Shown: positions 3,893 through 64,000 of the stretch, one piece after another
How the letters are laid out: each line of letters opens with the position of its first letter
Position numbering within the stretch: position 1 is the first letter of the stretch
Assembly (NCBI GenBank): GCA_964016885.1
Contig: OZ024751.1
Coordinates: 44,454,001-44,518,000 of the forward strand
Direction: 5' to 3'
Length of the DNA: 64,000 nt
DNA from: Eledone cirrhosa
Lineage: Eukaryota
The notes under the pieces: generated by a model
The model's input: only the letters and a program-made list of their open reading frames with translations
The model's database searches: none
What the model was told of the DNA's origin: nothing
Translations under genes and position numbers: made by a program

Positions 3893-4089
3893 GTTGTTTA
3901 TAATTCACCAAAGTTTGTTTGTTTGCTCGTATGTTCCCTGCCAACCTTGAAATACACCACAGTACGTTCACATGAACACAGAATCTGGAATGTTAATATA
4001 ACAAATCAGAAATTGATTAAATTATTATAACTGTAACACGGTTAATTTATTTCAATGGTTTTATACAGATTAGAATTTTTTCACATACA

Positions 4090-7700: not shown

Positions 7701-10700
7701 GGTGGTGGAGGTGGTGGTAGTTGGTAGTGGTGGTGGAGGTGGTGGTTGTTGGTAGTGGTGGTGGAGGTGGTGGTTGTTGGTAGTGGTGGTGGAGGTGGTG
7801 GTTGTTGGTAGTGGTGGTGGAGGTGGTGGTTGTTGGTAGTGGTGGTGAAGGTGGTGGTGTTGGTAGTGGTGGTGGAGGTGGTGGTTTTTGGTAGTGGTGG
7901 TGGAGGTGGTGGTTGTTGGTAGTGGTGGTGAAGGTGGTGGTGTTGGTAGTGGTGGTGGAGGTGGTGGTTGTTGGTAGTGGTGGTGGAGGTGGTGGTTGTT
8001 GGTAGTGGTGGTGAAGGTGGTGGTGTTGGTAGTGGTGGTGGAGGTGGTGGTTTTTGGTAGTGGTGGTGGTGATGGCGGTTGTTGGTAGTGGTGGTGGAGG
8101 TGGTGGTGGTTGGTAGTGGCGGTGGAGGTGGAGGTTGTTGGTAGTGGCGGTGGAGATGGAGGTTGTTGGTAGTGGCGGTGGAGGTGGAGGTGGTGGTTGT
8201 TGGTAGTGGTGGTGGAGGTGGTGGTTGTTGGTAGTGGCGGTGGAGGTGGTGGTTGTTGGTAGTGGTGGTGGAGGTGGTGGTTGTTGGTAGTGGTGGTGGT
8301 GGTGGAGGTGGTGGTTGTTGGTAGTGGCGGTGGAGGTGATGGTTGTTGGTAGTGGTGGTGGGGGTGGTGGTTGTTGGTAGTGGTGGTGGAGGTGGTGGTT
8401 GTTGCTAGTGGTGGTGGGGGGGGTGGTTGTTGGTAGTGGTGGTGGGGGTGGTGGTTGTTGGTAGTGGTGGTGGGGGTGGTGGTTGTTGGTAGTGGCGGTG
8501 GAGGTGGTGGTTGTTGGTAGTGGTGGTGGAGGTGGTGGTTGTTGGTAGTGGAGGTGGAGGTGGTGGTTGTTGCTAGTGGTGGTGGAGGTGGTGGTTGTTG
8601 CTAGTGGCGGTGGAGGTGGTGGTTGTTGGTAGTGGTGGTGGAGGTGGTGGTTGTTGGTAGTGGCGGTGGAGGTGGTGGTTGTTGGTAGTGGTGGTGGGGG
8701 TGGTGGTTGTTGGTAGTGGTGGTGGAGGTGGTGGTTGTTAGTAGTGGTGGTGGGGGTGGTGGTTGTTGGTAGTGGTGGTGGAGGTGGTGGTTGTTAGTAG
8801 TGGTGGTGGGGGTGGTGGTTGTTGGTAGTGGTGGTGGAGGTGGTGGTTGTTGGTAGTGGTGGTGGAGGTGATGGTTGTTGGTAGTGGCGCTGGAGGTGGT
8901 GGTTGTTAGTAGTGGTGGTGGGGGTGGTGGTTGTTGGTAGTGGTGGTAGAGGTGGTGGTTGTTGGTAGTGGTGGTGGGGGTGGTGGTTGTTGGTAGTGGT
9001 GGTGGAGGTGGTGGTTGTTGGTGGTGGTGGTGGAGGTGATGGTTGTTGGTAGTGGCGCTGGAGGTGGTGGTTGTTAGTAGTGGTGGTGGGGGTGGTGGTT
9101 GTTGGTAGTGGTGGTGGAGGTGGTGGTTGTTGGTGGTGGTGGTGGAGGTGATGGTTGTTGGTAGTGGCGCTGGAGGTGGTGGTTGTTAGTAGTGGTGGTG
9201 GGGCTGGTGGTTGTTGGTAGTGGTGGTGGAGGTGGTGGTTGTTGGTAGTGGTGGTGGGGGTGGTGGTTGTTGGTAGTGGAGGTGGAGGTGGTGGTTGTTG
9301 CTAGTGGCGGTGGAGGTGGAGGTTGTTGGTAGTGGTGGTGGAGGTGGTGGTTGTTGGTAGTGGTGGTGGGGGTGGTGGTTGTTGGTAGTGGCGGTGGAGG
9401 TGGTGGTTGTTGGTAGTGGTGGTGGGGGTGGTGGTTGTTGGTAGTGGTGGTGGAGGTGGTGGTTGTTGGTAGTGGCGGTGGAGGTGATGGTTGTTGGTAG
9501 TGGTGGTGGGGGTGGTGGTTGTTGGTAGTGGTGGTGGAGGTGGTGGTTGTTGCTAGTGGCGGTGGAGGTGGTGGTTGTTGGTAGTGGTGGTGGGGGTGGG
9601 GGTTGTTGGTAGTGGTGGTGGGGGTGGTGGTTGTTGGTAGTGGTGGTGGGGGTGGTGGTTGTTGGTAGTGGCGGTGGAGGTGGTGGTTGTTAGTAGTGGT
9701 GGTGGGGGTGGTGGTTGTTGGTAGTGGTGGTGGAGGTGGTGGTTGTTGGTAGTGGTGGTGGAGGTGGTGGTTGTTGGTAGTGGTGGTGGAGGTGGTGGTT
9801 GTTGGTGGTGGTGGTGGAGGTGATGGTTGTTGGTAGTGGCGCTGGAGGTGGTGGTTGTTAGTAGTGGTGGTGGGGGTGGTGGTTGTTGGTAGTGGTGGTG
9901 GAGGTGGTGGTTGTTGGTAGTGGTGGTGGAGGTGGTGGTTGTTGGTAGTGGTGGTGGAGGTGGTGGTTGTTGGTAGTGGTGGTGGAGGTGGTGGTTGTTG
10001 GTAGTGGTGGTGGAGGTGGTGGTTGTTGGTAGTGGTGGTGGAGGTGGTGGTTGTTGGTGGTGGTGGTGGAGGTGGTGGTTGTTGGTAGTGGTGGTGGAGG
10101 TGGTGGTGGTTGGTAGTGGTGGTGGAGGTGGTGGTTGTTGGTAGTGGTGGTGGAGGTGGTGGTTCGTAGTGGTGGTGGAGGTGGTGGTTGTTGGTAGTGG
10201 TGGTGGAGGTGGTGGTTGTTGGTAGTGGTGGTGGGGGTGGTGCTTGTTGGTAGTGGTGGTGGAGGTGGTGGTTGTTGGTAGTGGTGGTGGAGGTGGTGGT
10301 TGTTGGTAATGGTGGTGGAGGTGGTGGTTGTTGGTAGTGGTGGTGGAGGTGGTGGTTGTTGGTAGTGGTGGTGGAGGTGGAGGTTGTTGGTAGTGGTGGT
10401 GGAGGTGGTGGTTGTTGGTAGTGGTGGTGGAGGTGGTGGTTGTTGGTAGTGGTGGTGGAGGTGGTGGTTGTTGGTAGTGGAGGTGGAGGTGGAGGTTGTT
10501 GGTAGTGGTGGTGGAGGTGGAGGTTGTTGGTAGTGGTGGTGGAGGTGGTGGTTGTTGGTAGTGGTGGTGGAGGTGGTGGTTGTTGGTAGTGGAGGTGGAG
10601 GTGGAGGTTGTTGGTAGTGGTGGTGGAGGTGGAGGTTGTTGGTAGTGGTGGTGGAACTGGTGGTTGTTGGTAGTGGTGGTGGAGGTGGTGGTTGTTGGTA

Positions 10701-13700
10701 GTGGTGGTGGAGGTGGTGGTTGTTGGTAGTGGTAGTGGAGGTGGTGGTTGTTGGTAGTGGTTGTGGAGGTGGTGGTGTTGGTAGTGGTGGTGGAGGTGGT
10801 GGTTGTTGGTAGTGGTGGTGGAGGTGGAGGTTGTTGGTAGTGGTGGTGGAGGTGGTGGTTGTTGGTGGTGGTGGTGGAGGTGGTGGTTGTTGGTAGGGGT
10901 GGTGGAGGTGGTGGTGGTTGGTGGTGGTGGTGGAGGTGGTGGTTGTTGGTAGTGGTAGTGGTGGTGGAGGTTGAGGTTGTTGGTAGTGGTGGTGGAGGTG
11001 GTGTTTGTTGGTAGTGGTGGTGGAGGTGGTGGTGGTTGGTGGTGGTGGTGGAGGTGGTTGTTGTTGGTAGTGGTAGTGGTGGTGGAGGTGGAGGTTGTTG
11101 GTAGTGGAGGTGGAGGTGGAGGTTGTTGGTAGTGGTGGTGGAGGTGGTGGTTGTTGGTAGTGGTGGTGGAGGTGGTGGTTGTTGGTAGTGGTGGTGGAGG
11201 TGGTGGTTGTTGGTGGTGGTGGTGGAGGTGGTGGTTGTTGGTAGTGGTGGTGGAGGTGGTGGTGGTTGGTGGTGGTGGTGGAGGTGGTGGTTGTTGGTAG
11301 TGGTAGTGGTGGTGGAGGTGGAGGTTGTTGGTAGTGGAGGTGGAGGTGGAGGTTGTTGGTAGTGGTGGTGGAGGTGGAGGTTGTTGGTAGTGGTGGTGGA
11401 GGTGGTGGTTGTTGGTAGTGGTGGTGGAGGTGGTGGTTGTTGGTAGTGGTGGTGGAGGTGGTGGTTGTTGGTAGTGGAGGTGGAGGTGGAGGTTGTTGGT
11501 AGTGGTGGTGGAGGTGGAGGTTGTTGGTAGTGGTGGTGGAGGTGGTGGTTGTTGGTATTGGTGGTGGAGGTGGTGGTTGTTGGTAGTGGTGGTGGAGGTG
11601 GTGGTTGTTGGTAGTGGTAGTGGAGGTGGTGGTTGTTGGTAGTGGTGGTGGAGGTGGTGGTGTTGGTAGTGGTGGTGGAGGTGGTGGTTGTTGGTAGTGG
11701 TGGTGGAGGTGGAGGTTGTTGGTAGTGGTGGTGGTGGTGGTGGTTGTTGGTAGTTCGCGGTGGAGGTGGTGGTTGTTGGTAGTGGCGGTGGAGGTGGTGG
11801 TTGTTGGTAGTGGTGGTGGAGGTGGTGGTTGTTGGTAGTGGTGGTGGAGGTGGTGTTGTTGGTAGTGGTGGTGGAGGTGGTGGTAGTTGGTAGTGGTGGT
11901 GGAGGTGGTGGTTGTTGGTGGTGGTGGTGGAGGTGGTGGTTGTTGGTGGTGGAGGTGGTGGTTGTTGGTAGTGGTGGTGGAGGTGGTGTTGTTGGTAGTG
12001 GTGGTGGAGGTGGTGGTAGTTGGTAGTGGTGGTGGAGGTGGTGGTTGTTGGTGGTGGTGTTGGTAGTGGTGGTGGAGGTGGTGGTTGTTGGTAGTGGTGG
12101 TGGAGATGGTGGTATTTGGTAGTGGTGGTGAAGGTGGAGGTTGTTGGTAGTGGTGGTGGAGGTGGTGGTAGTTGGTAGTGGTGGTGGAGGTGGTGGTCGT
12201 TGGTAGTGGTGGTGGAGGTGGTGGTAGTTGGTAGTGGTGGTGGAGGTGGTGGTTGTTGGTAGTGGTGGTGGAGGTGGTGGTTGTTGGTAGTGGTGGTGGA
12301 GGTGGTGGTTGTTGGTAGTGGTGGTGGAGGTGGTGGTGGTTGGTAGTGGCGGTGGAGGTGGAGGTTGTTGGTAGTGGCGGTGGAGATGGAGGTTGTTGGT
12401 AGTGGCGGTGGAGATGGAGGTGGTGGTTGTTGGTAGTGGTGGTGGAGGTGGTGGTTGTTGGTAGTGGCGGTGGAGGTGGTGGTTGTTGGTAGTGGTGGTG
12501 GAGGTGGTGGTTGTTGGTAGTGGTGGTGGTGGTGGAGGTGGTGGTTGTTGGTAGTGGCGGTGGAGGTGATGGTTGTTGGTAGTGGTGGTGGGGGTGGTGG
12601 TTGTTGGTAGTGGTGGTGGAGGTGGTGGTTGTTGCTAGTGGTGGTGGGGGTGGTGGTTGTTGGTAGTGGTGGTGGGGGTGGTGGTTGTTGGTAGTGGGGG
12701 TGGGGGTGGTGGTTGTTGGTAGTGGCGGTGGAGGTGGTGGTTGTTGGTAGTGGTGGTGGAGGTGGTGGTTGTTGGTAGTGGAGGTGGAGGTGGTGGTTGT
12801 TGCTAGTGGTGGTGGAGGTGGTGGTTGTTGCTAGTGGCGGTGGAGGTGGTGGTTGTTGGTAGTGGTGGTGGAGGTGGTGGTTGTTGGTAGTGGTGGTGGA
12901 GGTGGTGGTTGTTGGTAGTGGTGGTGGGGGTGGTGGTTGTTGGTAGTGGTGGTGGAGGTGGTGGTTGTTGGTGGTGGTGGTGGAGGTGGTGGTTGTTGGT
13001 AGTGGTGGTGGGGGTGGTGGTTGTTGGTAGTGGTGGTGGAGGTGGTGGTTGTTGGTAGTGGCGGTGGAGGTGGTGGTTGTTGGTAGTGGTGGTGGAGGTG
13101 GTGGTTGTTGCTAGTGGCGGTGGAGGTGGTGGTTGTTGGTAGTGGTGGTGGAGGTGGTGGTTGTTGCTAGTGGCGGTGGAGGTGGTGGTTGTTGGTAGTG
13201 GCGGTGGAGGTGGTGGTTGTTGGTAGTGGTGGTGGAGGTGGTGGTTGTTGGTAGTGGAGGTGGAGGTGGTGGTTGTTGCTAGTGGTGGTGGGGCTGGTTG
13301 TTGTTGGTAGTGGTGGTGGAGGTGGTGGTTGTTGGTAGTGGTGGTGGGGGTGGTGGTTGTTGGTAGTGGTGGTGGAGGTGGTGGTTGTTGGTAGTGGTGG
13401 TGGGGGTGGTGGTTGTTGGTAGTGGTGGTGGAGGTGGTGGTTGTTGCTAGTGGCGGTGGAGGTGGTGGTTGTTGGTAGTGGTGGTGGAGGTGGTGGTTGT
13501 TGCTAGTGGCGGTGGAGGTGGTGGTTGTTGGTAGTGGCGGTGGAGGTGGTGGTTGTTGGTAGTGGTGGTGGAGGTGGTGGTTGTTGGTAGTGGTGGTGGG
13601 GGTGGTGGTTGTTGGTAGTGGTGGTGGGGGTGGTGGTTGTTGGTAGTGGTGGTGGAGGTGGTGGTTGTTGCTAGTGGCGGTGGAGGTGGTGGTTGTTGGT

Positions 13701-15372
13701 AGTGGTGGTGGAGGTGGTGGTTGTTGCTAGTGGCGGTGGAGGTGGTGGTTGTTGGTAGTGGCGGTGGAGGTGGTGGTTGTTGGTAGTGGTGGTGGAGGTG
13801 GTGGTTGTTGGTAGTGGAGGTGGAGGTGGTGGTTGTTGCTAGTGGTGGTGGGGGTGGTGGTTGTTGGTAGTGGTGGTGGAGGTGGTGGTTGTTGGTAGTG
13901 GCGGTGGAGGTGGTGGTTGTTGCTAGTGGCGGTGGAGGTGGTGGTTGTTGGTAGTGGTGGTGGAGGTGGTGGTTGTTGGTAGTGGTGGTGGAGGTGGTGG
14001 TTGTTGCTAGTGGCGGTGGAGGTGGTGGTTGTTGGTAGTGGTGGTGGAGGTGGTGGTTGTTGCTAGTGGCGGTGGAGGTGGTGGTTGTTGGTAGTGGTGG
14101 TGGAGGTGGTGGTTGTTGCTAGTGGCGGTGGAGGTGGTGGTTGTTGGTAGTGGTGGTGGAGGTGGTGGTTGTTGGTAGTGGTGGTGGAGTTGGTGGTTGT
14201 TGCTAGTGGTGGTGGGGGTGGTGGTTGTTAGTAGTCGTGGTGGAGGTGGTGGTTGTTGGTAGTGGCGGTGGAGGTGGTGGTTGTTGGTAGTGGTGGTGGG
14301 GGTGGTGGTTGTTGGTAGTGGTGGTGGAGGTGGTGGTTGTTAGTAGTGGTGGTGGGGGTGGTGGTTGTTGGTAGTGGTGGTGGAGGTGGTGGTTGTTAGT
14401 AGTGGTGGTGGGGGTGGTGGTTGTTGGTAGTGGTGGTGGAGGTGGTGGTTGTTGGTAGTGGTGGTGGAGGTGGTGGTTGTTGGTGGTGGTGGTGGAGGCG
14501 ATGGTTGTTGGTAGTGGCGCTGGAGGTGGTGGTTGTTAGTAGTGGTGGTGGGGGTGGTGGTTGTTGGTAGTGGTGGTGGAGGTGGTGGTTGTTGGTAGTG
14601 GTGGTGGAGGTGGTGGTTGTTGGTGGTGGTGGTGGAGGTGATGGTTGTTGGTAGTGGCGCTGGAGGTGGTGGTTGTTAGTAGTGGTGGTGGGGGTGGTGG
14701 TTGTTGGTAGTGGTGGTGGAGGTGGTGGTTGTTGGTAGTGGTGGTGGAGGTGGTGGTTGTTGGTAGTGGTGGTGGAGGTGGTGGTTGGTAGTGGTGGTGG
14801 AGGTGGTGGTTGTTGGTAGTGGTGGTGGAGGTGGTGGTTGTTGGTAGTGGTGGTGGAGGTGGTGGTTCGTAGTGGTGGTGGAGGTGGTGGTTGTTGGTAG
14901 TGGTGGTGGAGGTGGTGGTTGTTGGTAGTGGTGGTGGGGGTGGTGCTTGTTGGTAGTGGTGGTGGAGGTGGTGGTTGTTGGTAGTGGTGGTGGAGGTGGT
15001 GGTTGTTGGTAGTGGTGGTGGAGGTGGTGGTTGTTGGTAGTGGTGGTGGAGGTGGTGGTTGGTTGTGGTGGTGGAGGTGGTGGTTGGTAGTGGTGGTGGA
15101 GGTGGTGGTTCGTAGTGGTGGTTGTTGGTAGTGGTGGTGGAGGTGGTGGTTGTTGGTAGTGGTGGTGGAGGTGGTGGTTGTTGGTAGTGGTGGTGGAGGT
15201 GGTGGTTGGTAGTGGTGGTGGAGGTGGTGGTTGGTAGTGGTGGTGGAGGTGGTGGTTGTTGGTAGTGGTGGTGGAGGTGGTGGTTGTTGGTAGTGGTGGT
15301 GGAGGTGGTGGTTGTTGGTAGTGGTGGTGGAGGTGGTGATTGTTGGTAGTGGTGGTGGAGGTGGAGGTTGTG
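4735..15372. repeat. ~10.6-kb GGT-rich satellite; 28-bp unit from ~5200, preceded by degenerate (GGT)n
   Basis: Unit GGTAGTGGTGGTGGAGGTGGTGGTTGTT; extreme G/T strand skew; variant units recur ~4.2-4.7 kb apart. Confidence 0.97.
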
Positions 15373-19836: not shown

Positions 19837-19877
<41 letters not shown>

Positions 19878-19879
<2 letters not shown>

Positions 19880-22800
19880 ATAGCCTCAAAGGGTTAATCG
19901 GTCGATTTGACCTGGCCGATAGATATCGACTAGATTTTCCGACTGCGCCAACCTGGACTTGGGCAAATCGTAGCGGATCATCTAGGTCGTACCTAGATAG
20001 GTTCTTAGTTAGAATTAAGGATAAGGACTTTTTAAGTTGTCCAAAAATGCGCATGGTTGGCTATTCAGACCACAAATTAGTGACCTGCATGGTCAACCTT
20101 GACAGAACTCATAGACAGGGCCCCGGTTACTGGAAGCTCAACTTGTCCTTGCCGGCAAGTAGAGCCTACAGGAATCGGATTAGTACGTTAGTTAAGGAAC
20201 GGTTGACTGGAGCGATCGTCAACAGCAGGTGGTGGGTATCTCTAAAGAGAGAGATTAGAGTAGTCTCGATAGAATTTAGTAAGGTTCTAGCTGCGGATAG
20301 GAATAGGAAGGAAAGGGAGCTAATAGATAGAGTAGAAGAGGCAATTAGAAGCGGCGACGTGGCCAGAGTGCTAGCGTCGAGAACGGCTTTGAGCCAGTTT
20401 TTCGACGCGAAGCACGAAGGCTGCGTTGTCCGAAGTAAAATACGTGCTCTAGGGAACGAGGGGACCAAAGCTGTTAGCTGGGCCCGCATGACAGAGGCCA
20501 ACAGTGGAACTAAATCCACCATCCGGTCTTTGCGAGACCTGGATGGACGGGCGATTCTTGAGCCTAAGCAGATGTGTGAGGCCTTTCAAAGGCACTTTGC
20601 CCGACTGTTCGGGAGGGGCGGGGAGCCGGTTGGGAACGTGGACTTCGGTCCATACCTCGACGGCCTGCCGCGCCTCTCGGACAGGGAGGCGAAGTCCTGC
20701 GAGGAGCCGATTTCGGCCGCTGAGATAGAGGACGTGCTGAGCCAATGCGGCAAACGCAAATCCCCGGGTCTCGATGGTCTTCCTTACGAATTATATCTAG
20801 CTATGCCGGACTTGTTCCCCGATCTCCTCGAGGCGGTCTACTGCAACTGGCAACAGAACGGGAGAATTCCCTGTACTGTGACCAAGGGCGTAGTCACGCT
20901 AGTGAGGAAGGACGAGAACAAGGGGGACGAAATAAGTAACTTCAGGCCCATAACACTGCTAAATACAGAGTTACAGATTTTGGCCAAGGTGCTAGCAAAG
21001 AGGTTGGCGCTTGTCGTGGGCAACCTGGTGGGAGATGCGCAGACATGCGCTATCCCGTCCAGGTCCATCCATGACAACCTCCACCTCATGCGATACATCA
21101 TAGAGAGGGTTGGGAACGAACCCGGCTTTGGTGGGGATCTGATCAACTTGGATCAATCTAAGGCGTTCGATAGGGTCGACCATGGTTACCTGGATGCGGT
21201 GCTAGCGGCGGCAGGCTTCGGACCCGTTTTCAGGGGCTGGATCACTGCTATGCACAGCAGCCGCATCTGCTCTAGGGTCAAGGTGAACGGCTACCTCTCG
21301 GAGCCGTTCAAAATCGCGCGGTCCATCCGACAAGGGTGCCCTCTCTCCTCCCTTCTGTATGTGTTGACTCTCGAGCCACTACTGCGGAAGTTGGAGTTGT
21401 TGCAGGGCATCCCTTTGGAACCGGGATTGCGGAAAGCGGTGTCGGCCTACGCCGATGACGTGACAGTAATGGTGTCGACAGCCTCCGAAATCGAGGCGGT
21501 CGGCACCTTACTGGAGGAGTACGAAAAGTTCACAGGGGCTAAGCTGAACCGGGACAAGTCGATCGGTTTGCAACTCGGCACGTGGAGGGGCAGACCGATG
21601 CCCTCCGATGGCGTCGTCGGACGCTGGACGGAGGGCCCGGTGAAGTTGCTCGGGGTCTGGTTCGGACCGGACCTCCAGGTGGAGAAAAACTGGGCGGAGG
21701 TTACGAACAGGGTGTTTGCACTGACCCAGAAGTGGGCCAGTTGCAAACTATCCCTGAAAGGTCGGGCGGAGGTGGCGAACACCTACATAGCGTCCGTCAT
21801 CTACTACCGCCTGACCGTAGTGCCCTGCCCAAGGGAAACCCTCACCAAGATGGAGCGCGCGCTCTTCCAATTCCTTTGGAAGAGGCGGGCTCCTATGGTG
21901 AGGAGATCCATCTGCTGTCAACACCCTTCGAAAGGAGGGCTGGGGATGCCGTGGCTAATGATGCGTAAACACGCATTAAGGCTACGGCACCTCTACGTAT
22001 TCCTCACCGGACAACCGGTGTGGGCCTCGTTTGTGAGACGAACCTTTCCCAGACTCGTCTCACTCACCGAGCTGCAATCCTGGGTCAAGCAAAGACCGAG
22101 AAAACTGGGCGCCTGGCACACTGAGTGTGCCCAGGCGCTCACCGCCCTCTGGCAGGCGGATCCGGTTATCAGTGGAGACTCCACCGCAACATTCTATAGA
22201 GGGCTGGTACGCAGCAGGTGCGACGACGCCCTCGGAGAAGCCCTAGACATGGAGGAGGACGAACTGGCCAGCCTGTTCGGTAGGACATTCAGCCCGGGAC
22301 CTATGGACAACTTCCAGAAGTCCCTGGCCTGGCAGTGCTACCGAGGGGCTTTACCCGTTCGAGAAAGGCTCTACAGACACGGGCGCCCGGGTAGGGACCC
22401 CGCCAAAAAGATCTGTCCCAGATGCGTGTGCGACGAGGAAACCGTTGCACACGCATTGGTACACTGCTCGGGCGTAGCCGATCTGTGGGGCTATGTCGAA
22501 CAACTGCTGTCAAGGGTGGGACCGATCCGGTTGACCACCGAGTCTATTGTAATGATCAAGCCGCCTCCCCCCTTCAAAGATGAAGCAGAGGCGGTGTTTC
22601 TGTGCGTAATAGCCATGGCGAAAGAGGTTGTATGGTGGACGCGTCTGAAAGGACTGAGGTCAGACACCTTTCTCTCTGGCCAACAACTGGTCCGTTTCTT
22701 CCGATATCATTTCGGAAGAAGGATCAGGATGGAGAGAGAGGTGCTGCACCCCAGCCGTTTCTATGAAAGATGGGTGAAAGTGGCGAGAATGGCCCGTGTG

Positions 22801-23092
22801 AATGGGCCTTCACTCTACATCAGACTATAGGTGAGGAAGATGAAAGACCAAGGGAGCACCCCTTCTCTGTGCTCCTGAGGAGAAGGGTTGCACACTTTTT
22901 TCGGGGGTGTGTGCGAGCCCCCAAGGCGCCTCCTCTCTATTGAGGATTTTGTTAAAAATTTTATTTTTTGTTATATCTTATTTTATTTTTATATTTTGTT
23001 ATTGCCTCCTCCTTATTGAGGACGCCTTTTTGTGTAAACTCCCCCCTTTGTACTTGTCCCACTTTTGATGCCCTAGTGGCAAATAAAAGAAA
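19878..23092 (+). mobile_element. Tx1-clade non-LTR retrotransposon, 5'-truncated, at an (ATCT)n/(CT)n tract
   Basis: Starts abruptly after (ATCT)n within the endonuclease domain; near-identical to 49055-52271; ends gtggcAAATAAAAGAAA then ttatctatct. Confidence 0.95.
19879..22830 (+). CDS. Truncated ORF2: end of APE endonuclease, reverse transcriptase, CCHC-type zinc finger
   Basis: YLDRF..SDH (APE), GYWKLN, KSPGLDG, FRPITLLN, LDQSKAFDRVDH, RQGCPLS, AYADD, GGLG, CPRC..ETVAHALVHC. The first ~40 aa of the ORF-track entry are flank and microsatellite. Confidence 0.93.
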
Positions 23093-23096
23093 CTTA

Positions 23097-23208
<112 letters not shown>

Positions 23209-23464: not shown

Positions 23465-23558
23465 ATTAATCGATTAGTAAACGACAGTAGCCAGATCCTG
23501 GATTTTCAACAAGGAAGAGGACTAACCATCTGTGTTTACGCATCAAATTCAATACACA
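23465..23558. repeat. Left arm of perfect 94-bp inverted repeat (partner 27321-27414)
   Basis: Exact reverse complement of 27321-27414; symmetry continues ~60 nt into the adjacent interrupted (TA)n. Confidence 0.97.
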
Positions 23559-23619
23559 TATATATATATATGTATATATATACGTATGTATATATATATA
23601 TGTATATATGTATATATAT

Positions 23620-25440
23620 ATCGGAATCGAAGATAGGACAGGACCACTCTTACCGGCGGTACCCACTTTCAATCTTAAGGACCACAAGGTAAACTTTGAT
23701 AATGACCCTAAAATTAGATTAATCTGCCCCTCTAAATCAGATATAGGTAAAATAAGCAAATATATCTTAGATAGAATCATCCCCCAAATTAAGGCTAAGG
23801 TTAACATTAAACTCTGGGGGAAGACCCAAGAAGCAATAAGATGGTTTAATAGCATTAGCAATAAGAATAAATCTAAGTTTATCCAGTTTGATATCGATGA
23901 ATATTACTCATCGATATCACCTGAAACTTTGAATAGAGCCATTAAGTTTGCTAAGGATAACTCCGACCTTACAAACGATGAAATTAAGATTATATTAGAA
24001 GCTAGGAAAACTATAGTCAAATTTGAGAACAGTTATTGGGTACGTAAAGATAGACCCTCTAACTTTGACATAACAATGGGCTCTAACGATTCGGCGGAAA
24101 TAACTGATATTGTGGGGTTATTTATCGCCTTTAGACTCCAGGAAAAATTCAGCAATCTCCACGGCGGAATATACCGCGACGATGTTCTCCTCCTAGCTAA
24201 AAACCTTAATAACCAAAAACTAGAAAAACTACGCAAAGATATAAGAAAACTACTACTCGAAATAGGACTAACTATAACATATGAATACAACCTTAAAGTA
24301 GTTAACTTCCTGGATGTCACACTCAATTTAAACTCTGGTTTGATTAAACCGTTTCATAAATTGAATGAAAATCTCAAATACGTAAATGTTGGGTCTAACC
24401 ACCCCATCTCTATAATTAAATCTATCCCTAAAAATATTTCCCTTAGAATCTCGGGTCTATCTTCTAACATACAAGTATTTAAGGAACACGCCGAGTACTA
24501 CGATAACGCCCTTAGTAAAGCAGGCTACCTCAACAAAATAGAGTACATAGATGGGAACAATCAAAACACCCAAAATAAATCCCACATAGGTAGATATAAT
24601 AACACAACACCAAACCACACTTACTACCATAGTATGCACACCAGTAAACCAACAAACAAAACTAATAGAAAGCGATGCAAAGAGTACTTATGGTATAACC
24701 CCGAATACAATAGCTCCATTAGTACAAATTTACCAGTACTCTTCTTTAAAATAATTAAAAGACATTTTCCCACATCACACAAATACCACAAAATCCTAAA
24801 CCCTACCACTATAAGACTGTCATACTCTACAGCGTTAAACCTTGAACAACACATAAAAAAGATCAATACTAGAAGGTTAAACGAAAACACTAAGAACTTA
24901 AGTACAAAGAACCCCCAAAAAACAGTAGACAATACACTACAGAACATAAATAAACCACACCTAAGTTCGTCCGCAATACTACTCCAGAGAAAACCCAACG
25001 TACACAACTGTAACTGCACCTATCCTGACAACTGCCCCCTCGGCAATAACTGCCTGGAAAAAAATATTATTTATAAGTGTACCATTAAATCCGGAGGCAA
25101 CGAGTGGTATTACGTGGGATCAACGGCAACATCGTTTAAATCTCGATTGTATAGGCATTCTTACTCAATAAAACACCAGAGCCAAAGAAATGTAACAACT
25201 TTAGCAGAAAAAGCTTGGACGCTCAGGGATAGCAATCAAAAGTTTACCCTAAAATGGGAAAAATTAGCTAAAACCCAGAGCTTTTCCAGGAGCCAAAATT
25301 TCTGCAAATTGTGTAATCTTGAGATTTATTACATAATCACACACAAGAAGAAACTGCTGAATAACAGAATTGAACGAACATTATTCTGCCGTCACAGAAC
25401 TAAAACCCTTTTTTCCCACTACAAGCAGAATATTACATAA
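23620..25440 (+). CDS. Penelope-like element RT + C-terminal GIY-YIG endonuclease, Naiad-like, 5'-truncated but uninterrupted
   Basis: LKDHK..F..RLI.P, FIQFDIDEYY, FDITMGS, GIYRDD, VNFLDV, SNHP; linker CNCx5CPL..C; IIY..YYVG..FKSRL..H; CKLC..E..LLN..CRH. The ATG at 23608 lies in (TA)n flank. Confidence 0.92.
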   Translation: MGIEDRTGPLLPAVPTFNLKDHKVNFDNDPKIRLICPSKSDIGKISKYILDRIIPQIKAKVNIKLWGKTQEAIRWFNSISNKNKSKFIQFDIDEYYSSISPETLNRAIKFAKDNSDLTNDEIKIILEARKTIVKFENSYWVRKDRPSNFDITMGSNDSAEITDIVGLFIAFRLQEKFSNLHGGIYRDDVLLLAKNLNNQKLEKLRKDIRKLLLEIGLTITYEYNLKVVNFLDVTLNLNSGLIKPFHKLNENLKYVNVGSNHPISIIKSIPKNISLRISGLSSNIQVFKEHAEYYDNALSKAGYLNKIEYIDGNNQNTQNKSHIGRYNNTTPNHTYYHSMHTSKPTNKTNRKRCKEYLWYNPEYNSSISTNLPVLFFKIIKRHFPTSHKYHKILNPTTIRLSYSTALNLEQHIKKINTRRLNENTKNLSTKNPQKTVDNTLQNINKPHLSSSAILLQRKPNVHNCNCTYPDNCPLGNNCLEKNIIYKCTIKSGGNEWYYVGSTATSFKSRLYRHSYSIKHQSQRNVTTLAEKAWTLRDSNQKFTLKWEKLAKTQSFSRSQNFCKLCNLEIYYIITHKKKLLNNRIERTLFCRHRTKTLFSHYKQNIT

Positions 25441-38962: not shown

Positions 38963-39720
38963 GGCAGTATCGGTAGAGGGTCGGACGCCGTGCTAGGGTG
39001 GTGGATTGGCAGTATCGGTAGAGGGTCGGACGCCGTGCTAGGGTGGTGGATTGGCAGTATCGGTAGAGGGTCGGACGCCATGCTAGGGTGGTGGATTGGC
39101 AGTATCGGTAGAGGGTCGGACGCCATGTTAGGGGGGTGGATTGGTAGTATCGGTAGAGGGTCGGACGCCGTGCTAGGGTGGTGGATTGGCAGTATCGGTA
39201 GAGGGTCGGACGACATGCTAGGGTGGTGGATTGGCAGTATCGGTAGAGGGTCGGACGCCGTGCTAGGGTGGTGGATTGGCAGTATCGGTAGAGGGTCGGA
39301 CGCCATGCTAGGGTGGTGGATTGGCAGTATCGGTAGAGGGTCGGACGCCGTGCTAGGGTGGTGGATTGGCAGTATCGGTAGAGGGTCGGACGACATGCTA
39401 GGGTGGTGGATTGGCAGTATCGGTAGAGGGTCGGACGCCATGCTAGGGTGGTGGATTGGCAGTATCGGCAGAGGGTCGGACGACATGCTAGGGTGGTGGA
39501 TTGGCAGTATCGGTAGAGGGTCGGACGACATGCTAGGGTGGTGGATTGGCAGTATCGGCAGAGGGTCGGACGCCATGCTCTGCAGCAAAGAGTTACGGCC
39601 CTTTATGGTCTGAGGTCAAATCCCGCCGAGGTTAACTTTGCCTTTCATCCTTACGGGGTCGATAAAATACAGTACCAGTAATGTACTGGAGTAATTACTG
39701 GCCTAAAGTAGTAACAATTA
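38963..39720 (+). mobile_element. Family-A SINE whose first 45 nt are tandemly repeated 14 times
   Basis: Unit gggtggtggattggcagtatcggtagagggtcggacgccatgcta; the last unit continues into the normal SINE body and tail. Confidence 0.93.
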
Positions 39721-42792: not shown

Positions 42793-42954
42793 CTAATTGC
42801 TTCACAACTCATGGATACGTTGACTTTCAGCTAAACGTTTATGACTGTTTGTACTTCATTCACTACCTTCTGAATTTGACATTCTGCCCTCACATTCTAC
42901 TTTCCATTCATATATCTCGGTCTATATAATTTCGTTATTATTATCATTATTTGT

Positions 42955-43275
42955 CATGAGCGGGACTGACCCGACTATCATCTGAGTCCATTGTGAAGTT
43001 CACCACGCCGTCTTCCTTTAAAGGAGAAGAACAGGCAGTTTTTATCTGCCCTGGTGGCCATGGTAAAAGAGGTCATGTATTGGACGCCTTTAAAAGGGTT
43101 GAAGACATGTATTTTCCTCTTCGGTGAAGCCCTGATTAATTTCTTCAGGTTTCACTTGAAGGGAAAAATCATGGTGAAGAGGGAAGTGCTACTTTCCAAC
43201 CAGTTTGTTGAAAGGTAGATGAGAGTGGCGAGTATGGTCCAAGTAAAGGAGCCTACTCTGAGTATGTGCCTGTAA
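42955..43275 (+). pseudogene. Diverged Tx1-clade ORF2 C-terminal fragment
   Basis: RLSSESIVK..EQAVFIC/VAMVKEVMYWTPLKGLK..FFRFHLKGKI..REVL..FVER* aligns with the ORF2 C-terminus at ~22520-22830. Confidence 0.85.
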
Positions 43276-46278: not shown

Positions 46279-46650
46279 GTTCTTGTATTTTTTGTAGTCG
46301 TTCTAAAAGTCCTTGTCAGATTTAGATTAATGGCTCCTTTACAAAAATTCCATAGAAAAAGAGAGAAAATACGACAAAACAACAACAGCAACATCAAAAA
46401 CAACAATATCCCCCACCGTTACCCTCAAAAATAAGTGACCAGGCGGTCCGGTCTTGTCAGAAAGACTGTTATTTCCCATTATCCTGTCAACAGAGCGTGG
46501 CTTGTGTTAAGGTGGATCAGTCAAGCGTACCAAGCAATCTATCTATCTATCCATCTATCCGTTTTTGCTCCCCAACATATTTACACTTTACTCAGCTTGA
46601 TATCAATTTCAGACATCCATCCATCCATCCATCAAGTAATTCATCCACCC

Positions 46651-46712
<62 letters not shown>

Positions 46713-47112
46713 TCTATTCTATCGACTGTATGTAAAATCCCCGCCATATGTCTTTGAATTGTCCCCTTTTCTTGTGCGCTCTTGTGGCAAATAAAGAAAT
46801 ATATCTATCCATCTATCTATCTCTGCAAATAAAGAAAGATATGTATCTATCTATCTATCTATCTATAAACCTGTAGGTTGAGGAAAAAGAGGAAGAGAGG
46901 AAAGGAGCGCTCGACTTCGTGCTCCTGGAGATGAGGGTTGTACATTTTTCGGGGTGTATACAACCCATGTGTAACGCCTCCCCCCTATTGGGGATTTCAA
47001 TTGTTATTTGTTATTTATTTATTAGTTCTATTTTTATACGCTTATATGTAAACTCCCCACTTTGTATTTGTATTTGTCCCCATCGTTTGTGCCCCTGTGG
47101 CAAATAAAGAAA
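46713..47112 (+). mobile_element. Three stacked 3' fragments of diverged Tx1-like elements separated by (ATCT)n
   Basis: Termini (gtg)gcaaataaagaaa end at 46799, 46837 and 47112; the last fragment has a stop codon and a 3' UTR homologous to 22830-23092. Confidence 0.85.
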
Positions 47113-47141
47113 TCTATCTATCTATCTATCTATCTATCTAA

Positions 47142-48545
47142 GCGAAGGAGCTACTGGCGGATGCGAAAAAATATATAGTGTACGGGGAAAATGGTTCATT
47201 CACAATCCATTCCCCCCCGGAACTAAAAAGCCAGAGACTCCTAAACACGGTCATGTTTAGGACAATCTCGAACAAAAGTAAAAAACCAGCTCAACCATCA
47301 CAGAGCGAGATAGAGCTGGTTTTAAAAGACGTCATGAAGGACATCACCTTCATTCAGAAGGATAGACTCTACGGGAGTCTATCCATTCTCATGAAGGACA
47401 GGGACACAGCAGTGAAACTGTCCATCAAACCAATCACATCCACCGCATACACCTTCTACCCTACGTACATGGGTAGAAGAACACAAAAAATAAAAATCCA
47501 CACCATCCTGCCGATTATGGACATATGGTGGGTTTTGACAGGTTTTCTGGACCTGGAGGATGACATGCTGGTGTCCATGGGAAAGGCATCGGGTGACGCG
47601 TTCAGTGGAACGAGCCTCGAACTTGTAGTTCAAATGAGGCCCGAAAGGATCGCCCAGATCCCTGAACGCGTCATACTGGATGATCTAACCTTCATCAACA
47701 TTACCGTTGAGGGTAGACGGCCCTCGTGTTACCTCTGCGGAACCAGAGGTCACCTGAGGGCTGTCTGTCCCCAACTTAATAAGAAAACCCCAATCCTGCC
47801 TACACCACCAACAACTGCACAACCAACACAATCACCACAACTACCACTACAAAAACAACCACCACAGCTCAAACCAAAACAAAACAATGTCCAACCCATC
47901 CCCTCCACTCAAAAAACAAAAACAATTTCCAAAACACCCGTACCGCAAACACAACCCGAAAATATACCCCTCCCCTCCAACGCGGAAGATGACCCTAGTT
48001 CGTCGTCAGACGAGGAGGAGCACTTCCACACAATCAAAAGAAAAAAAAGAAAACACACCTCAGACACACAAATGAAAAAAAACCCTCCCCAAAACATAAC
48101 ACTGACACCAACACAAAAGAGCTCACAACAGCAAACAAAAAACACCACACAAAAACAAAAACATGCATACACATACATAAATACAAGAAACAAAAAACTG
48201 TTAAACATTGTGTACAACAACAATCTAATAAAAACACAAGGGCCTAACTTCACCCAGGCAGGGGATTTCCCCCACCTCAAAATGATTAAGGCCCCACAGG
48301 ACACCTATAAAACTTTAAAAAACAATTTTAAAGAGGACGTGGGTCCCCCCTGCGTCGGGCCCATTAACCGCGTCCTCCTAAAAAACTATCCCACCCCCTC
48401 CCCAAACACCCTCACAACTCCAAGCTCCCCAACCACACAACACACTGATGCCCCCACACTTCCACAAACCACCACCCCACCCAACAACCCATCCCCCACC
48501 CTAATGGAAATTGTGCAGCCCGATACCCGGGACGCAGAGAGGTAA
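47142..48545 (+). CDS. ORF1, gag-like protein with a CCHC zinc knuckle; probably 5'-truncated
   Basis: CYLCGTRGHLRAVC (CX2CX4HX4C) then a P/T/Q/K-rich tail; the frame is open back to the insertion junction with no nearby initiator ATG. Confidence 0.88.
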   Translation, partial: AKELLADAKKYIVYGENGSFTIHSPPELKSQRLLNTVMFRTISNKSKKPAQPSQSEIELVLKDVMKDITFIQKDRLYGSLSILMKDRDTAVKLSIKPITSTAYTFYPTYMGRRTQKIKIHTILPIMDIWWVLTGFLDLEDDMLVSMGKASGDAFSGTSLELVVQMRPERIAQIPERVILDDLTFINITVEGRRPSCYLCGTRGHLRAVCPQLNKKTPILPTPPTTAQPTQSPQLPLQKQPPQLKPKQNNVQPIPSTQKTKTISKTPVPQTQPENIPLPSNAEDDPSSSSDEEEHFHTIKRKKRKHTSDTQMKKNPPQNITLTPTQKSSQQQTKNTTQKQKHAYTYINTRNKKLLNIVYNNNLIKTQGPNFTQAGDFPHLKMIKAPQDTYKTLKNNFKEDVGPPCVGPINRVLLKNYPTPSPNTLTTPSSPTTQHTDAPTLPQTTTPPNNPSPTLMEIVQPDTRDAER

Positions 48546-48569
48546 GTGCCTTTTCTCTTCACCACCAAC

Positions 48570-51500
48570 ATGGCTATGCTAAGAGTAGGCTGTTTAAATG
48601 CGCGTGGCCTGGGCTCAACTTGGAAGCAAGCAATGCTTCTAAATGACCTCAGGTCACAACGTATAGATGTGATGGTTATTTGCGAGGCCCGGATCAGCAA
48701 CGTGCGACAGCTGTCCCCCACCTTTGATGACTTTGAGATGCACGCATCTCTCTGTCAGCCCGGAGGTGGGGGTGGAGTTGTCGTTCTGCTGCAAAAACAT
48801 CTGGGTCTCGCAACACAGATGGTACATTTGGACCCGGAGGGTCGACTAGTGGTTCTGGACCTTGGCAGTGGTAAAGGCGGAGCGTTTAGGTTGGTAGCCG
48901 CCTACGGCCCTTTCGGGTCAATGCGGCCGGACTTCTTCCATCGTCTGGAGACTTTTCTAGGGACGTCCCGCTCCTTGCTATTAGTGGGGGACTGGAATGG
49001 TATCCTAGATGCACGCTGGGACTACGTAGGGGCCTGCCCCGATAGAGAGGGGTGTAATAGCCTCAAAGGGTTAATCGGTCGATTTGACCTGGCCGATAGA
49101 TATCGACTAGATTTTCCGACTGCGCCAACCTGGACTTGGGCAAATCGTAGCGGATCATCTAGGTCGTACCTAGATAGGTTCTTAGTTAGAATTAAGGATA
49201 AGGACTTTTTAAGTTGTCCAAAAATGCGCATGGTTGGCTATTCAGACCACAAATTAGTGACCTGCATGGTCAACCTTGACAGAACTCATAGACAGGGCCC
49301 CGGTTACTGGAAGCTCAACTTGTCCTTGCCGGCAAGTAGAGCCTACAGGATTCGGATTAGTACGTTAGTTAAGGAACGGTTGACTGGAGCGATCGTCAAC
49401 AGCAGGTGGTGGGTATCTCTAAAGAGAGAGATTAGAGTAGTCTCGATAGAATTTAGTAAGGTTCTAGCTGCGGATAGGAATAGGAAGGAAAGGGAGCTAA
49501 TAGATAGAGTAGAAGAGGCAATTAGAAGCGGCGACGTGGCCAGAGTGCTAGCGTCGAGAACGGCTTTGAGCCAGTTTTTCGACGCGAAGCACGAAGGCTG
49601 CGTTGTCCGAAGTAAAATACGTGCTCTAGGGAACGAGGGGACCAAAGCTGTTAGCTGGGCCCCCGCGTGACAGAGGCCAACAGTGGAACTAAATCCACCA
49701 TCCGGTCTTTGCGAGACCTGGATGGACGGGCGATTCTTGAGCCTAAGCAGATGTGTGAGGCCTTTCAAAGGCACTTTGCCCGACTGTTCGGGAGGGGCGG
49801 GGAGCCGGTTGGGAACGTGGACTTCGGTCCATACCTCGACGGCCTGCCGCGCCTCTCGGACAGGGAGGCGAAGTCCTGCGAGGAGCCGATTTCGGCCGCT
49901 GAGATAGAGGACGTGCTGAGCCAATGCGGCAAACGCAAATCCCCGGGTCTCGATGGTCTTCCTTACGAATTATATCTAGCTATGCCGGACTTGTTCCCCG
50001 ATCTCCTCGAGGCGGTCTACTGCAACTGGCAACAGATCGGGAGAATTCCCTGTACTGTGACCAAGGGCGTAGTCACGCTAGTGAGGAAGGACGAGAACAA
50101 GGGGGACGAAATAAGTAACTTCAGGCCCATAACACTGCTAAATACAGAGTTACAGATTTTGGCCAAGGTGCTAGCAAAGAGGTTGGCGCTTGTCGTGGGC
50201 AACCTGGTGGGAGATGCGCAGACATGCGCTATCCCGTCCAGGTCCATCCATGACAACCTCCACCTCATGCGATACATCATAGAGAGGGTTGGGAACGAAC
50301 CCGGCTTTGGTGGGGCTCTGATCAACTTGGATCAATCTAAGGCGTTCGATAGGGTCGACCATGGTTACCTGGATGCGGTGCTAGCGGCGGCAGGCTTCGG
50401 ACCCGTTTTCAGGGGCTGGATCACTGCTATGCACAGCGGCCGCATCTGCTCTAGGGTCAAGGTGAACGGCTACCTCTCGGAGCCGTTCAAAATCGCGCGG
50501 TCCATCCGACAAGGGTGCCCTCTCTCCTCCCTTCTGTATGTGTTGACTCTCGAGCCACTACTGCGGAAGTTGGAGTTGTTGCAGGGCATCCCTTTGGAAC
50601 CGGGATTGCGGAAAGCGGTGTCGGCCTACGCCGATGACGTGACAGTAATGGTGTCGACGGCCTCCGAAATCGAGGCGGTCGGCACCTTACTGGAGGAGTA
50701 CGAAAAGTTCACAGGGGCTAAGCTGAACCGGGACAAGTCGATCGGTTTGCAACTCGGCACGTGGAGGGGCAGACCGATGCCCTCCGATAGCGTCGTCGGA
50801 CGCTGGACGGAGGGCCCGGTGAAGTTGCTCGGGGTCTGGTTCGGACCGGACCTCCAGGTGGAGAAAAACTGGGCGGAGGTTACGAACAGGGTGTTTGCAC
50901 TGACCCAGAAGTGGGCCAGTTGCAAACTATCCCTGAAAGGTCGGGCGGAGGTGGCGAACACCTACATAGCGTCCGTCATCTACTACCGCCTGACCGTAGT
51001 GCCCTGCCCAAGGGAAACCCTCACCAAGATGGAGCGCGCGCTCTTCCAATTCCTTTGGAAGAGGCGGGCTCCTATGGTGAGGAGATCCATCTGCTGTCAA
51101 CACCCTTCGAAAGGAGGGCTGGGGATGCCGTGGCTAATGATGCGTAAACACGCATTAAGGCTACGGCACCTCTACGTATTCCTCACCGGACAACCGGTGT
51201 GGGCCTCGTTTGTGAGACGAACCTTTCCCAAACTCGTCTCACTCACCGAGCTGCAATCCTGGGTCAAGCAAAGACCGAGAAAACTGGGCGCCTGGCACAC
51301 TGAGTGTGCCCAGGCGCTCACCGCCCTCTGGCAGGCGGATCCGGTTATCAGTGGAGACTCCACCGCAACATTCTATAGAGGGCTGGTACGCAGCAGGTGC
51401 GACGACGCCCTCGGAGAAGCCCTAGACATGGAGGAGGACGAACTAGCCAGCCTGTTCGGTAGGACATTCAGCCCGGGACCTATGGACAACTTCCAGAAGT

Positions 51501-52009
51501 CCCTGGCCTGGCAGTGCTACCGAGGGGCTTTACCCGTTCGAGAAAGGCTCTACAGACACGGGCGCCCGGGTAGGGACCCCGCCAAAAAGATCTGTCCCAG
51601 ATGCGTGTGCGACGAGGAAACCGTTGCACACGCATTAGTACACTGCTCGGGCGTAGCCGATCTGTGGGGCTATGTCGAACAACTGCTGTCAAGGGTGGGA
51701 CCGATCCGGTTGACCACCGAGTCGATTGTAATGATCAAGCCGCCTCCCCCCTTCAAAGATGAAGCAGAGGCGGTGTTTCTGTGCGTAATAGCCATGGCGA
51801 AAGAGGTTGTATGGTGGACGCGTCTGAAAGGACTGAGGTCGGGCACCTTTCTCTCTGGCCAACAACTGGTCCGTTTCTTCCGATATCATTTCGGAAGAAG
51901 GATCAGGATGGAGAGAGAGGTGCTGCACCCCAGCCGTTTCTATGAAAGATGGGTGAAAGTGGCGAGAATGGCCCGTGTGAATGAGCCTTCACTCTACATC
52001 AGACTATAG
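48570..52009 (+). pseudogene. ORF2 (APE endonuclease, RT, zinc finger) with one +2 frameshift at ~49660
   Basis: LNARGL, ICEAR, VGDWN, YLDRF, SDH, AYADD; gggCCCCCgcg here versus gggCCCgca in the intact copy at ~20480. Confidence 0.92.
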
Positions 52010-52273
52010 GTGAGGAAGATAAAAGACCAAGGGAGCACCCCTTCTCTGTGCTCCTGAGGAGAAGGGTTGCACACTTTTTTCGGGGGTGTGTGCGACCCCC
52101 CAAGGCGCCTCCTCTCTATTGAGGATTTTGTTAAAAATTTTATTTTTTGTTATATCTTATTTTATTTTTATATTTTGTTATTGCCTTCTCCTTATTGAGG
52201 ACGCCTTTTTGTGTAAACTCCCCCCTTTGTACTTGTCCCACTTTTGATGCCCTAGTGGCAAATAAAAGAAATA

Positions 52274-52356
<83 letters not shown>

Positions 52357-52731
52357 ATTGCCATCTACCCTTCCAACCACCGTCACATCCATCTAACCAC
52401 TTAAGCAGCCACCCCTCCCTCTATCTAATAATCCAACTAGCTATCTATTCATTCATCTAACCACTCCAGCAACCATTCATCTAACCATCTTACCTTTCGT
52501 TCATCCGTCAAACCATTCAAACAAACATTTATCATCAATCTATCCATTCAAGGAACCATCAATCCATCTAATCATTAAAAAAAAATACCCTCCCTCCCCA
52601 ATCTACTGGTCCACCCACACCACTATCCATCCGACCATCCATTCATTTGTAACTGACAATAAGACAACACCTAGAGATGCCGCCACTAGAAATAACCCCC
52701 ACCCCTCAATCTCCACCCTCACATGACCTAC

Positions 52732-63134: not shown

Positions 63135-63396
63135 CATACATATACACATAGAGATACACACGTACAAATACACATAGAGATACACACGTACATATACACA
63201 TAGAGATACACACGTAGACATACACATAGAGATACACACGTAGACATACACATAGAGATACACACGTACAAATACACATAGAGATACACACGTACAAATA
63301 CACATAGAGATACACACGTACATATACACATAGAGATACACATACATATACACATAGAGATACACATATAGACATACACATAGAGATACACACGTA
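63135..63396. repeat. 26-bp minisatellite, ~10 units
   Basis: Unit tacacacgtacatatacacatagaga with variants. Confidence 0.9.
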
Positions 63397-64000
63397 CTAC
63401 TGAGAGACACCCTGCTGGAGGCGAACTTGATGGCGACCAACCTAAGGTTTAGGAAGAATCTGGGGAAGATGTGGACCTACATCTCAGATGTGCACCTGTC
63501 CAAGTCCCAGATTGATTTCATTCTGGTGAGGAAAAAGTGGCGGAATAGTGTTCTGAACACGGAACCATACAGCTATTTCAGTACACTGGGTAGTGACCAC
63601 CGGCTTGTTATGAGTGAGGTCCGCGTGAGCTTAAGAAAGAGCAAGGCTCAGCCCCGGAGAACGATCTATGACTGGGGAGCTTTCAAGGAAGATGATAAGC
63701 TACAGGAGAGGTTCACAGTGGAAGTGAGAAACCGGTTTAGTGCTCTGTGTGGAGAGTCAGAGGAGAGAGAGATTGGATGGACTGAGGAGAGTGTGACAAG
63801 GAGGTACGGGCACTTCACCAATGCAGTGGCGGAAGCAAGTGAAACCCTGGTGCCGAGGAAAAAAACAAAGGGAAGCACGTCAGCTCTGCAAACACAAAAG
63901 TGTGTGCAGCCAGAGAACACCTGAAAGCTGCCAGGGACCAATTCTATGCTGATCCTACGGAGGAGAGGATGGAGACTGTGGAGGTGATGAGGGAAGAGCT
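63397..64000 (+). mobile_element. 5'-truncated RTE-clade LINE (end of APE endonuclease), runs off the window
   Basis: N..F.K..GK.WTY..SQIDFILVRKKWRNSV..GSDHRLV..EVRNRFSAL; probable frameshift near 63870. Confidence 0.88.

Follow-up and report, generated by a model that had tools for sequence, protein, structure and literature searches.

Does a retrotransposon that is found again and again beside one four-base repeat seek that repeat out, or does it carry the repeat as its own tail? The question is raised by a family of long interspersed elements (LINEs) in a 64,000-nt stretch of the genome of Eledone cirrhosa (assembly GCA_964016885.1, contig OZ024751.1, forward-strand positions 44,454,001 to 44,518,000; hereafter the window, meaning this whole stretch, which was scanned on both strands and whose positions are used throughout). 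Within this one window the family has two ATCT loci. The terminus of the family, GCAAATAAA(A)GAAA, occurs exactly five times in the 64 kb, always on the + strand (ends at 23092, 46799, 46837, 47112, and 52271) and never on the minus strand, and TATC units lie directly downstream of every terminus (5/5). Pure (ATCT)3+ tracts number seven in the window; all are likewise on the + strand within the two element loci, and neither strand has one elsewhere. Elsewhere in the window an TATCTATC-like octamer (≤1 mismatch) follows 292 of 109,750 strand-positions (0.27%), a background at which the chance of a second ATCT locus is p ~3e-3. The association between terminus and (ATCT)n is real and, on two loci, well beyond chance; because both loci with an intact 3′ end lie in that repeat, the element likely seeks it out. 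One locus holds a single long copy (copy A), and the other a head-to-tail stack consisting of (ATCT)15, an 88-nt fragment (f1), a 25-nt spacer, a 13-nt fragment (f2), a 29-nt spacer, a 246-nt fragment (f3), a 28-nt spacer, a second long copy (copy B), and ~20 TATC units (Table 1). A preliminary description of the window had reported four stacked termini in one orientation plus an independent copy, all at ATCT, and these five same-strand ends are confirmed.

The repeat is more than the element's own tail. ATCT lies 5′ of every terminus-bearing copy, and this holds for both outermost copies, which are preceded by 10 units (copy A) and 15 units (stack); upstream of 19839, 46537, and 46651 there is neither a family terminus nor any homology to the element. 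The preliminary description had named copies without 5′ ATCT as the sign of a mere tail, and no terminus-bearing copy of that kind is present. Its independent copy, placed at 19878–23092 behind (ATCT)n, does have (ATCT)10 upstream, starts at 19880 unless a 2-nt TA microhomology is counted (19878), and is unequally flanked, with 10 repeat units 5′ but only two TATC units 3′, followed by (TC)n(TA)n. Decayed four-base repeat extends along both flanks of the stack: the lag-4 self-match is 0.48 in 46561–46650, vs. 0.24–0.29 at lags 1–3, with a motif density reached by 1/500 shuffles, and 0.50 in 52356–52660, where the motif density is reached by 0/500 shuffles; thus the tract predates the stacked insertions.

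The junctions are as regular as the flanks. All five 3′ joins are in one register, GAAA plus exactly 2 nt (CT, TA, GA, TC, TA) plus TATC, for which the chance is 1/256 with five joins and 1/64 without f2. The 2 nt after GAAA differ between copies A (CT) and B (TA), which are otherwise 99.4% identical, thus the 3′ join is not simply a copied tail. Both long copies join at their 5′ ends, as had been described, after ...TCTATCTA, i.e., after TCTA, copy A doing so through the TA microhomology; this places the start of copy B at 47141. The 5′ joins of f1 and f3 are readable as the TCTA type too; that of f2 is not. It could be proposed that the repeat is a tail after all and that new copies land behind older 3′ ends, the outer 5′ tracts being tails of elements that are no longer recognizable. 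The similar length of the three inner spacers, the occupation of both ATCT loci in the window, and a sister lineage that stacks right behind its own termini (see below) would suit such self-targeting, but it is improbable given the absence of terminus or homology upstream of the outer tracts, the two units 3′ against ten units 5′ of copy A, the decayed repeat on the stack flanks, and the mutual differences of the four stacked 3′ joins, which are therefore not serial copies of one join. It is harder still to credit a loose, Kibi-like preference for TC-rich microsatellites, or insertion at random followed by better survival of copies in repeats: copy A ends ~ten bases from a (TC)24 tract and the window is very repeat-rich, but terminus-bearing copies are absent from the other three of four AG/TC-class tracts, from 90 AT tracts, and from 21 AC tracts, and orientation and register are fixed on TATC.

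Copy A and the 3′ 3.2 kb of copy B differ by 17 substitutions and one 2-nt indel; 9 of 14 codon differences alter the residue, the pattern expected under neutral decay, and from a rate of 0.0036 per million years (PMC13282606) we estimate that both copies are less than ~1 million years old. No copy in the window is full length. Copy B lacks the start of the first open reading frame (ORF1), of which ~60–85 codons are absent by alignment with relatives; it has no poly(A) tail at its 3′ end, and its ORF2 contains a 2-nt frameshifting insertion at 49660–49661 in a C run, which may be a sequencing error. The stacked fragments f1, f3, and B are 78–83% identical to one another (aligned columns), with each pair beating 200/200 shuffles, thus they represent different subfamilies, as the preliminary description had held. 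Its statement that the tract was hit repeatedly also stands, with a correction of number: f2 sits in a 38-nt unit that matches the preceding 38-nt unit at 34/38 positions and may be a local tandem duplication, so that four insertions are secure and five possible. The spacers behind f1 and f2 are interrupted once each and the repeats behind f3 and B are pure, a pattern that fits growth of the stack from 5′ to 3′, on very small numbers. One copy had been missed, a decayed relative at 42936–43275 with 68% DNA identity. An assembly misjoin at the repeats was rejected, since copy A joins the repeat in the middle of the endonuclease sequence, where copy B has no ATCT. Interpretation of the inner spacers as target-site duplications is unsupported, as copy A permits at most ~6–8 nt.

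With two ORFs, 5′-truncated copies, and no terminal repeats, the element belongs to the L1 group of APE-type retrotransposons lacking long terminal repeats. Its ORF2 profile matches human L1 ORF2p over the whole length (E 1e-159), and L1 ORF2p and the L1 endonuclease are the best solved-structure matches, far above R2. The predicted model of the endonuclease (predicted local distance difference test score 91.8) has the human L1 endonuclease as its best structural match (E 3e-19, template-modeling score 0.81); a single-sequence PDB search with the endonuclease gave nothing meaningful, and L1 was found by profile and fold instead. Residues N10, E39, Y112, D141, N143, T189, D202, D226, and H227 are present and kept across 29 sequences, and the nuclease active site is, as judged from these residues, intact. 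ORF1 has a zf-CCHC match of E 0.038 in the window (below the Pfam cut-off) and of E 2.8e-4 in a relative (L013), its look-alikes in an Atlas comparison are CCHC/RRM proteins, and no Transposase_22 match was found in it; it is of type I, i.e., a CCHC knuckle with RNA-binding domains, a trait shared beyond Tx1. A homolog search with ORF1 returned 597 candidates, none reaching E 1e-3. CCHC-type ORF1s of non-mammalian animals are consistent with Tx1 (PMC5203782). A splice-donor-like GGTAAGT is located at the ORF1 stop (48541–48547) and just after the ORF1 stop in five sister loci (L013, L003, L023, L030, and L032); similar words also occur in the untranslated regions (UTRs) of sister elements.

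Membership in the Tx1 clade is likely, judging by the type I CCHC ORF1 and by a higher score of ORF2 to elements inserted in 5S ribosomal RNA (rRNA) genes than to human L1: in single-sequence searches with phmmer ORF2 scores 290 bits to L042 and 248 bits to L041, vs. 156 bits to human L1 ORF2p, these being scores and not a tree, with L041 and L042 regarded as Tx1-type by their 5S target alone. Repeat-flanked pieces make up 5/5 of those with the terminus and 5/6 of all related pieces (one window, two loci), above the >20% criterion given in the text of PMC4494074. Because the flanks are (ATCT)n and not (TC)n, (TTC)n, (TTCC)n, or (TTTC)n, the element was not filed as Kibi or Koshi.

The closest named protein relatives are, by sequence identity, from cephalopods: Argonauta hians (60–62%), Octopus bimaculoides (53%, a short piece), and Acanthosepion pharaonis (43–47%). 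One further relative, labelled as a protein of a Herbaspirillum metagenome-assembled genome (MAG), is likely a contaminant. In an unrooted reverse transcriptase (RT) tree of 48 rows (quick search; a single short row was excluded, and no row is a named Tx1 or L1 reference), the window element clusters with Argonauta plus three unnamed proteins (Shimodaira–Hasegawa-like approximate likelihood ratio test 99), and this group is sister to a 27-row group containing the cuttlefish protein; L041 and L042, 33% identical to the window element in the RT region, lie on a separate branch. The host implied by the nearest relatives is likely an octopod. An alignment scan of bacterial genome contigs yielded 45 loci, evidently eukaryotic DNA filed in MAGs, none of which is from the window element's own branch; a single-sequence scan of the same contigs gave 41 pattern matches, none real. 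Among these MAG-filed contigs, L041 (2726–2844) and L042 (4422–4534) are poly(A)-tailed relatives lying ~20 nt into 5S rRNA genes, in the manner of Mutsu. In L037 (2606–2769 and 9531–9707) a distant two-ORF relative lies directly behind a whole U1 small nuclear RNA gene, with a second U1 downstream; this is either a U1-array-associated LINE or a U1-headed chimera. Rfam at gathering score gave no match in the window or in seven array loci, and two U1 genes in L037.

Insertion probably takes place by target-primed reverse transcription into (ATCT)n, after an endonuclease nick whose phase on the (AGAT)n strand is fixed. To traits that are directly visible (the two-ORF anatomy, the catalytic residues, the ATCT that borders each terminus-bearing copy 5′ and 3′, and the constant 3′ register), this reading adds a nick, a role for a 3′ hairpin, and priming, which may follow one another in this way. 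ORF2p would bind the conserved 3′ hairpin of its own RNA; the endonuclease would nick the (AGAT)n strand either at GATA^GATA, in which case priming would add two bases, or 1–2 bases beyond that point, in which case the join would have been altered (both fit the data); and the nicked AGAT strand would prime synthesis of complementary DNA at the AAUAAAGAAA end. This synthesis would often stop early, resulting in 5′ truncation, and the top strand would then be joined after ...TCTA, in copy A via TA microhomology. A read-through (AUCU)n RNA end that anneals to the primer may sharpen the choice of site. As each insertion leaves repeat on either side of it, the locus would stay a target, and successive subfamilies could pile up head to tail. 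The hairpin (4 bp with a 5-nt loop, before AATAAA) is common to the window branch and its sister lineage; 95.5% of cells pair, two of the four pairs have changed on both sides, and the covariation score is reached by 0/500 shuffles, the compensating changes being inherited from common ancestors and thus few as events. When folded, the final 70 nt of three termini are no stabler than shuffles (z +0.4 to +1.3), and the case for the hairpin is one of covariation alone.

The sister lineage comprises 38 overlapping loci (L001–L036, L040, and L045; record set CAXXMW01) that contain only same-strand two-ORF relatives, head to tail, with ORF2 41–43% and ORF1 ~23–31% (residues 1–211) identical to the window element. 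The arrays have a period of ~6.4–6.9 kb and include several subfamilies and many open ORFs. Behind each 3′ end the next copy begins either at once or after a ~16–24-nt spacer peculiar to the array (48 rows of junctions, 31 of them distinct), and in 3/46 junction rows that copy is 5′-truncated. One endonuclease hairpin loop is common to 11/12 sister loci (12 of 20 loci parsed; the identity table covers 8 of 13), and transfer RNA genes as a target of these arrays were found in 0 of the 45 loci. Since the arrays stack without ATCT, the head-to-tail habit characterizes the lineage as a whole, and ATCT, as far as seen, is confined to the window branch. The CAXXMW01 contigs, filed under a bacterial MAG, are evidently eukaryotic, and pure LINE arrays of such size merit study in their own right.

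Several observations weigh against the proposed insertion into (ATCT)n from an endonuclease nick. The sample for target inference is two loci, both of them occupied, with no empty target in the window for comparison; a target-site duplication is unreadable inside a repeat, within the bound set by copy A; and the decayed relative has neither terminus nor ATCT tract, though both of its ends are lost. The specificity hairpin loop of the window endonuclease has 9 residues, as in the promiscuous L1 enzyme, compared with 11 in Tx1L. No (ATCT)3 occurs in the 45 relative loci, including the 38 stacking ones, and three different spacers lie behind sister endonucleases that are 91–95% identical and have the same loop, thus in the sister lineage the loop does not set the junction sequence. 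Of the earlier proposal that the element is (GATA)n/(ATCT)n-specific, insertion into (ATCT)n stands, on the 5′ tracts and fixed register of two loci, while the endonuclease is a putative reader of the repeat.

The main alternative, which we regard as unlikely, is that the endonuclease is loosely specific and that the RNA end, not the protein, directs insertion into (ATCT)n: the end of a read-through transcript would anneal to nicked (AGAT)n, and the target would be inherited from the 3′ flank of the donor. A fixed register is a natural outcome of such annealing, and the missing poly(A) tail and the L1-length loop would agree with it, as would sister arrays that keep their own spacer, or none, behind near-identical endonucleases, with the spacer also placed ahead of 5′-truncated copies (3/46 junction rows). 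However, an inherited tail poorly predicts CT vs. TA between GAAA and the repeat in two nearly identical copies; AATAAA beside the end suggests ordinary cleavage and polyadenylation; the sister arrays could also have grown by unequal recombination (in L020, two truncated units are identical); and the sister spacers are perhaps loosely related to one another. It is doubtful that the insertion site is programmed by a read-through RNA end, with one branch locked onto (GATA)n and the sister arrays, with the same loop, each on a spacer of its own; if this were true, the RNA would pass the choice of target on to descendants, and a change of 3′ flank would re-program it.

Table 1. Elements of the family and their flanking repeats in the window.
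Feature	Position	Strand	Basis or remark
(ATCT)10 plus A, 5′ flank of copy A	19839..19879	+	No family terminus upstream
Copy A, truncated inside endonuclease; 983 remaining ORF2 codons open	19880..23092	+	TA microhomology at 5′ join
3′ flank of copy A, with CT and two TATC units ahead of (TC)n and (TA)n	23093..23205	+	
Decayed ORF2 C-terminal fragment, related family	42936..43275	+	No terminus, no ATCT flank
Outer ATCT/ATCC tract of target locus	46537..46560	+	No family terminus upstream
Decayed four-base (ATCY-like) repeat, 5′ flank of stack	46561..46650	+	Lag-4 self-match, motif density
(ATCT)15, 5′ flank of first stacked piece	46651..46711	+	Sequence, tract scan
f1, 88-nt 3′ end, diverged subfamily	46712..46799	+	82% to f3, 78% to B, aligned columns
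25-nt spacer, TA then TATC units including one CATC	46800..46824	+	Sequence
f2, terminus of 13 nt, from either an abortive insertion or a local tandem duplication (38 nt)	46825..46837	+	34/38 identical
29-nt spacer, GA then TATC units including one TATG	46838..46866	+	Sequence
f3, 246-nt 3′ UTR of another subfamily, start at about the ORF2 stop codon	46867..47112	+	83% to B, aligned columns
28-nt spacer, pure repeat, TCTA at its end	47113..47140	+	Sequence
Copy B, young 5.1-kb LINE copy, 5′-truncated within ORF1	47141..52271	+	Sequence comparison
ORF1 of copy B, 467 codons, no start; CCHC zinc knuckle 47724–47774	47142..48545	+	zf-CCHC E 0.038
ORF2 of copy B: APE endonuclease, RT, C-terminal zinc finger	48570..52009	+	Profile matches
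ORF2 domains: endonuclease; RT (YADD); zinc finger	48570–49322; ~50105–50836; ~51497–51667	+	
3′ UTR of copy B	52010..52271	+	4-bp hairpin 52248–52260, 5-nt loop, then directly AATAAAAGAAA
3′ flank of copy B, TA then ~20 TATC units	52272..52355	+	Sequence
Decayed four-base repeat, 3′ flank of stack locus	52356..52660	+	Lag-4 self-match, motif density

Other repeats and coding remnants share the window. A 649-codon open frame (23491–25440, + strand), 400 nt behind copy A, has RT-like and GIY-YIG-like motifs and is presumably of a Penelope-type element, with no Pfam or PDB match; a 188-codon frame (63358–63924, + strand), resembling the APE endonuclease end of another LINE, we take to be RTE-like, with no Pfam match. 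A minisatellite at 4977–15371 spans 10.4 kb in 369 copies of a 28-nt unit (90% matches) with extreme G skew. Repeats resembling short interspersed elements (SINEs) are located at 3178–3902 and 38963–39579 and are presumably related to octopus SINEs; the unit of a 45-nt × 13.7 tandem array shares a segment with a 208-nt repeat at 3490–3902.

Microsatellites reported as LINE targets include ACAY, AC, TC, TTC, and TAA (PMC3812793), and Togen targets (TG)n (PMC4640811). Within Tx1, Kibi and Koshi of teleost fish occupy (TC)n and (TTC)n, and crocodilian families occupy (TTCC)n/(TTTC)n (PMC4494074; PMC3812793); 5S is among the Tx1 targets in a figure legend of PMC4494074, which holds the endonuclease mainly responsible for the choice of target. 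The mechanism of microsatellite targeting was described as poorly understood in a 2013 review (PMC3812793). The text of PMC4494074 contains neither ATCT nor GATA, although its figure and supplements listing Tx1 targets may name the repeat, and no (GATA)n- or (ATCT)n-specific LINE was found in the literature covered, which excluded most subscription papers, Repbase, and Dfam, where one may be catalogued. With the present family, the few microsatellites known as targets of APE-type LINEs would be joined by (GATA)n/(ATCT)n, likely in a mollusc. The family is young, its endonuclease is intact in one copy, and its RT is open in another; together with the readable register and a sister lineage that has other junctions, this makes it possible to address whether the protein or the RNA end selects the site. 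Stacked LINE ends may be concealed in (GATA)n markers or tracts of cephalopod assemblies, and for targeted gene insertion there is interest in a LINE directed to an abundant repeat outside coding sequence.

The element shares with human LINE-1 an endonuclease–RT–zinc finger ORF2, alike over its whole length, and the 9-residue loop, but differs in having a CCHC ORF1 in place of Transposase_22, no poly(A) tail, and a conserved 3′ hairpin. Tx1L of Xenopus, whose isolated endonuclease nicks almost exclusively its own site, has a similar L1-group endonuclease fold, the same catalytic residues, and apparent site-specific insertion (PMC1950540), but targets a DNA transposon and has the longer, 11-residue loop. 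Mutsu, the 5S rRNA-specific LINEs of zebrafish, resembles the window element in its two ORFs, similar size, and multicopy target (PMC5340908), whereas the Mutsu-like L041 and L042 have poly(A) ends within 5S genes. Octopus vulgaris has 80 L1-Tx1 families, 13 of them recently active, with no target preference given in the text and supplement of PMC13282606 that were searched; these cephalopod repeats are likely of the same class, and the present family may be among their consensus sequences. The nearest parallels are Kibi, Koshi, and the crocodilian Tx1 families, likewise APE-type two-ORF LINEs in a microsatellite with a C/T-rich unit. The present element differs from them in its cephalopod host and in its target, as its unit ATCT holds an A; the target unit is apparently unreported, and the element appears to insert in the manner of Kibi and Koshi.

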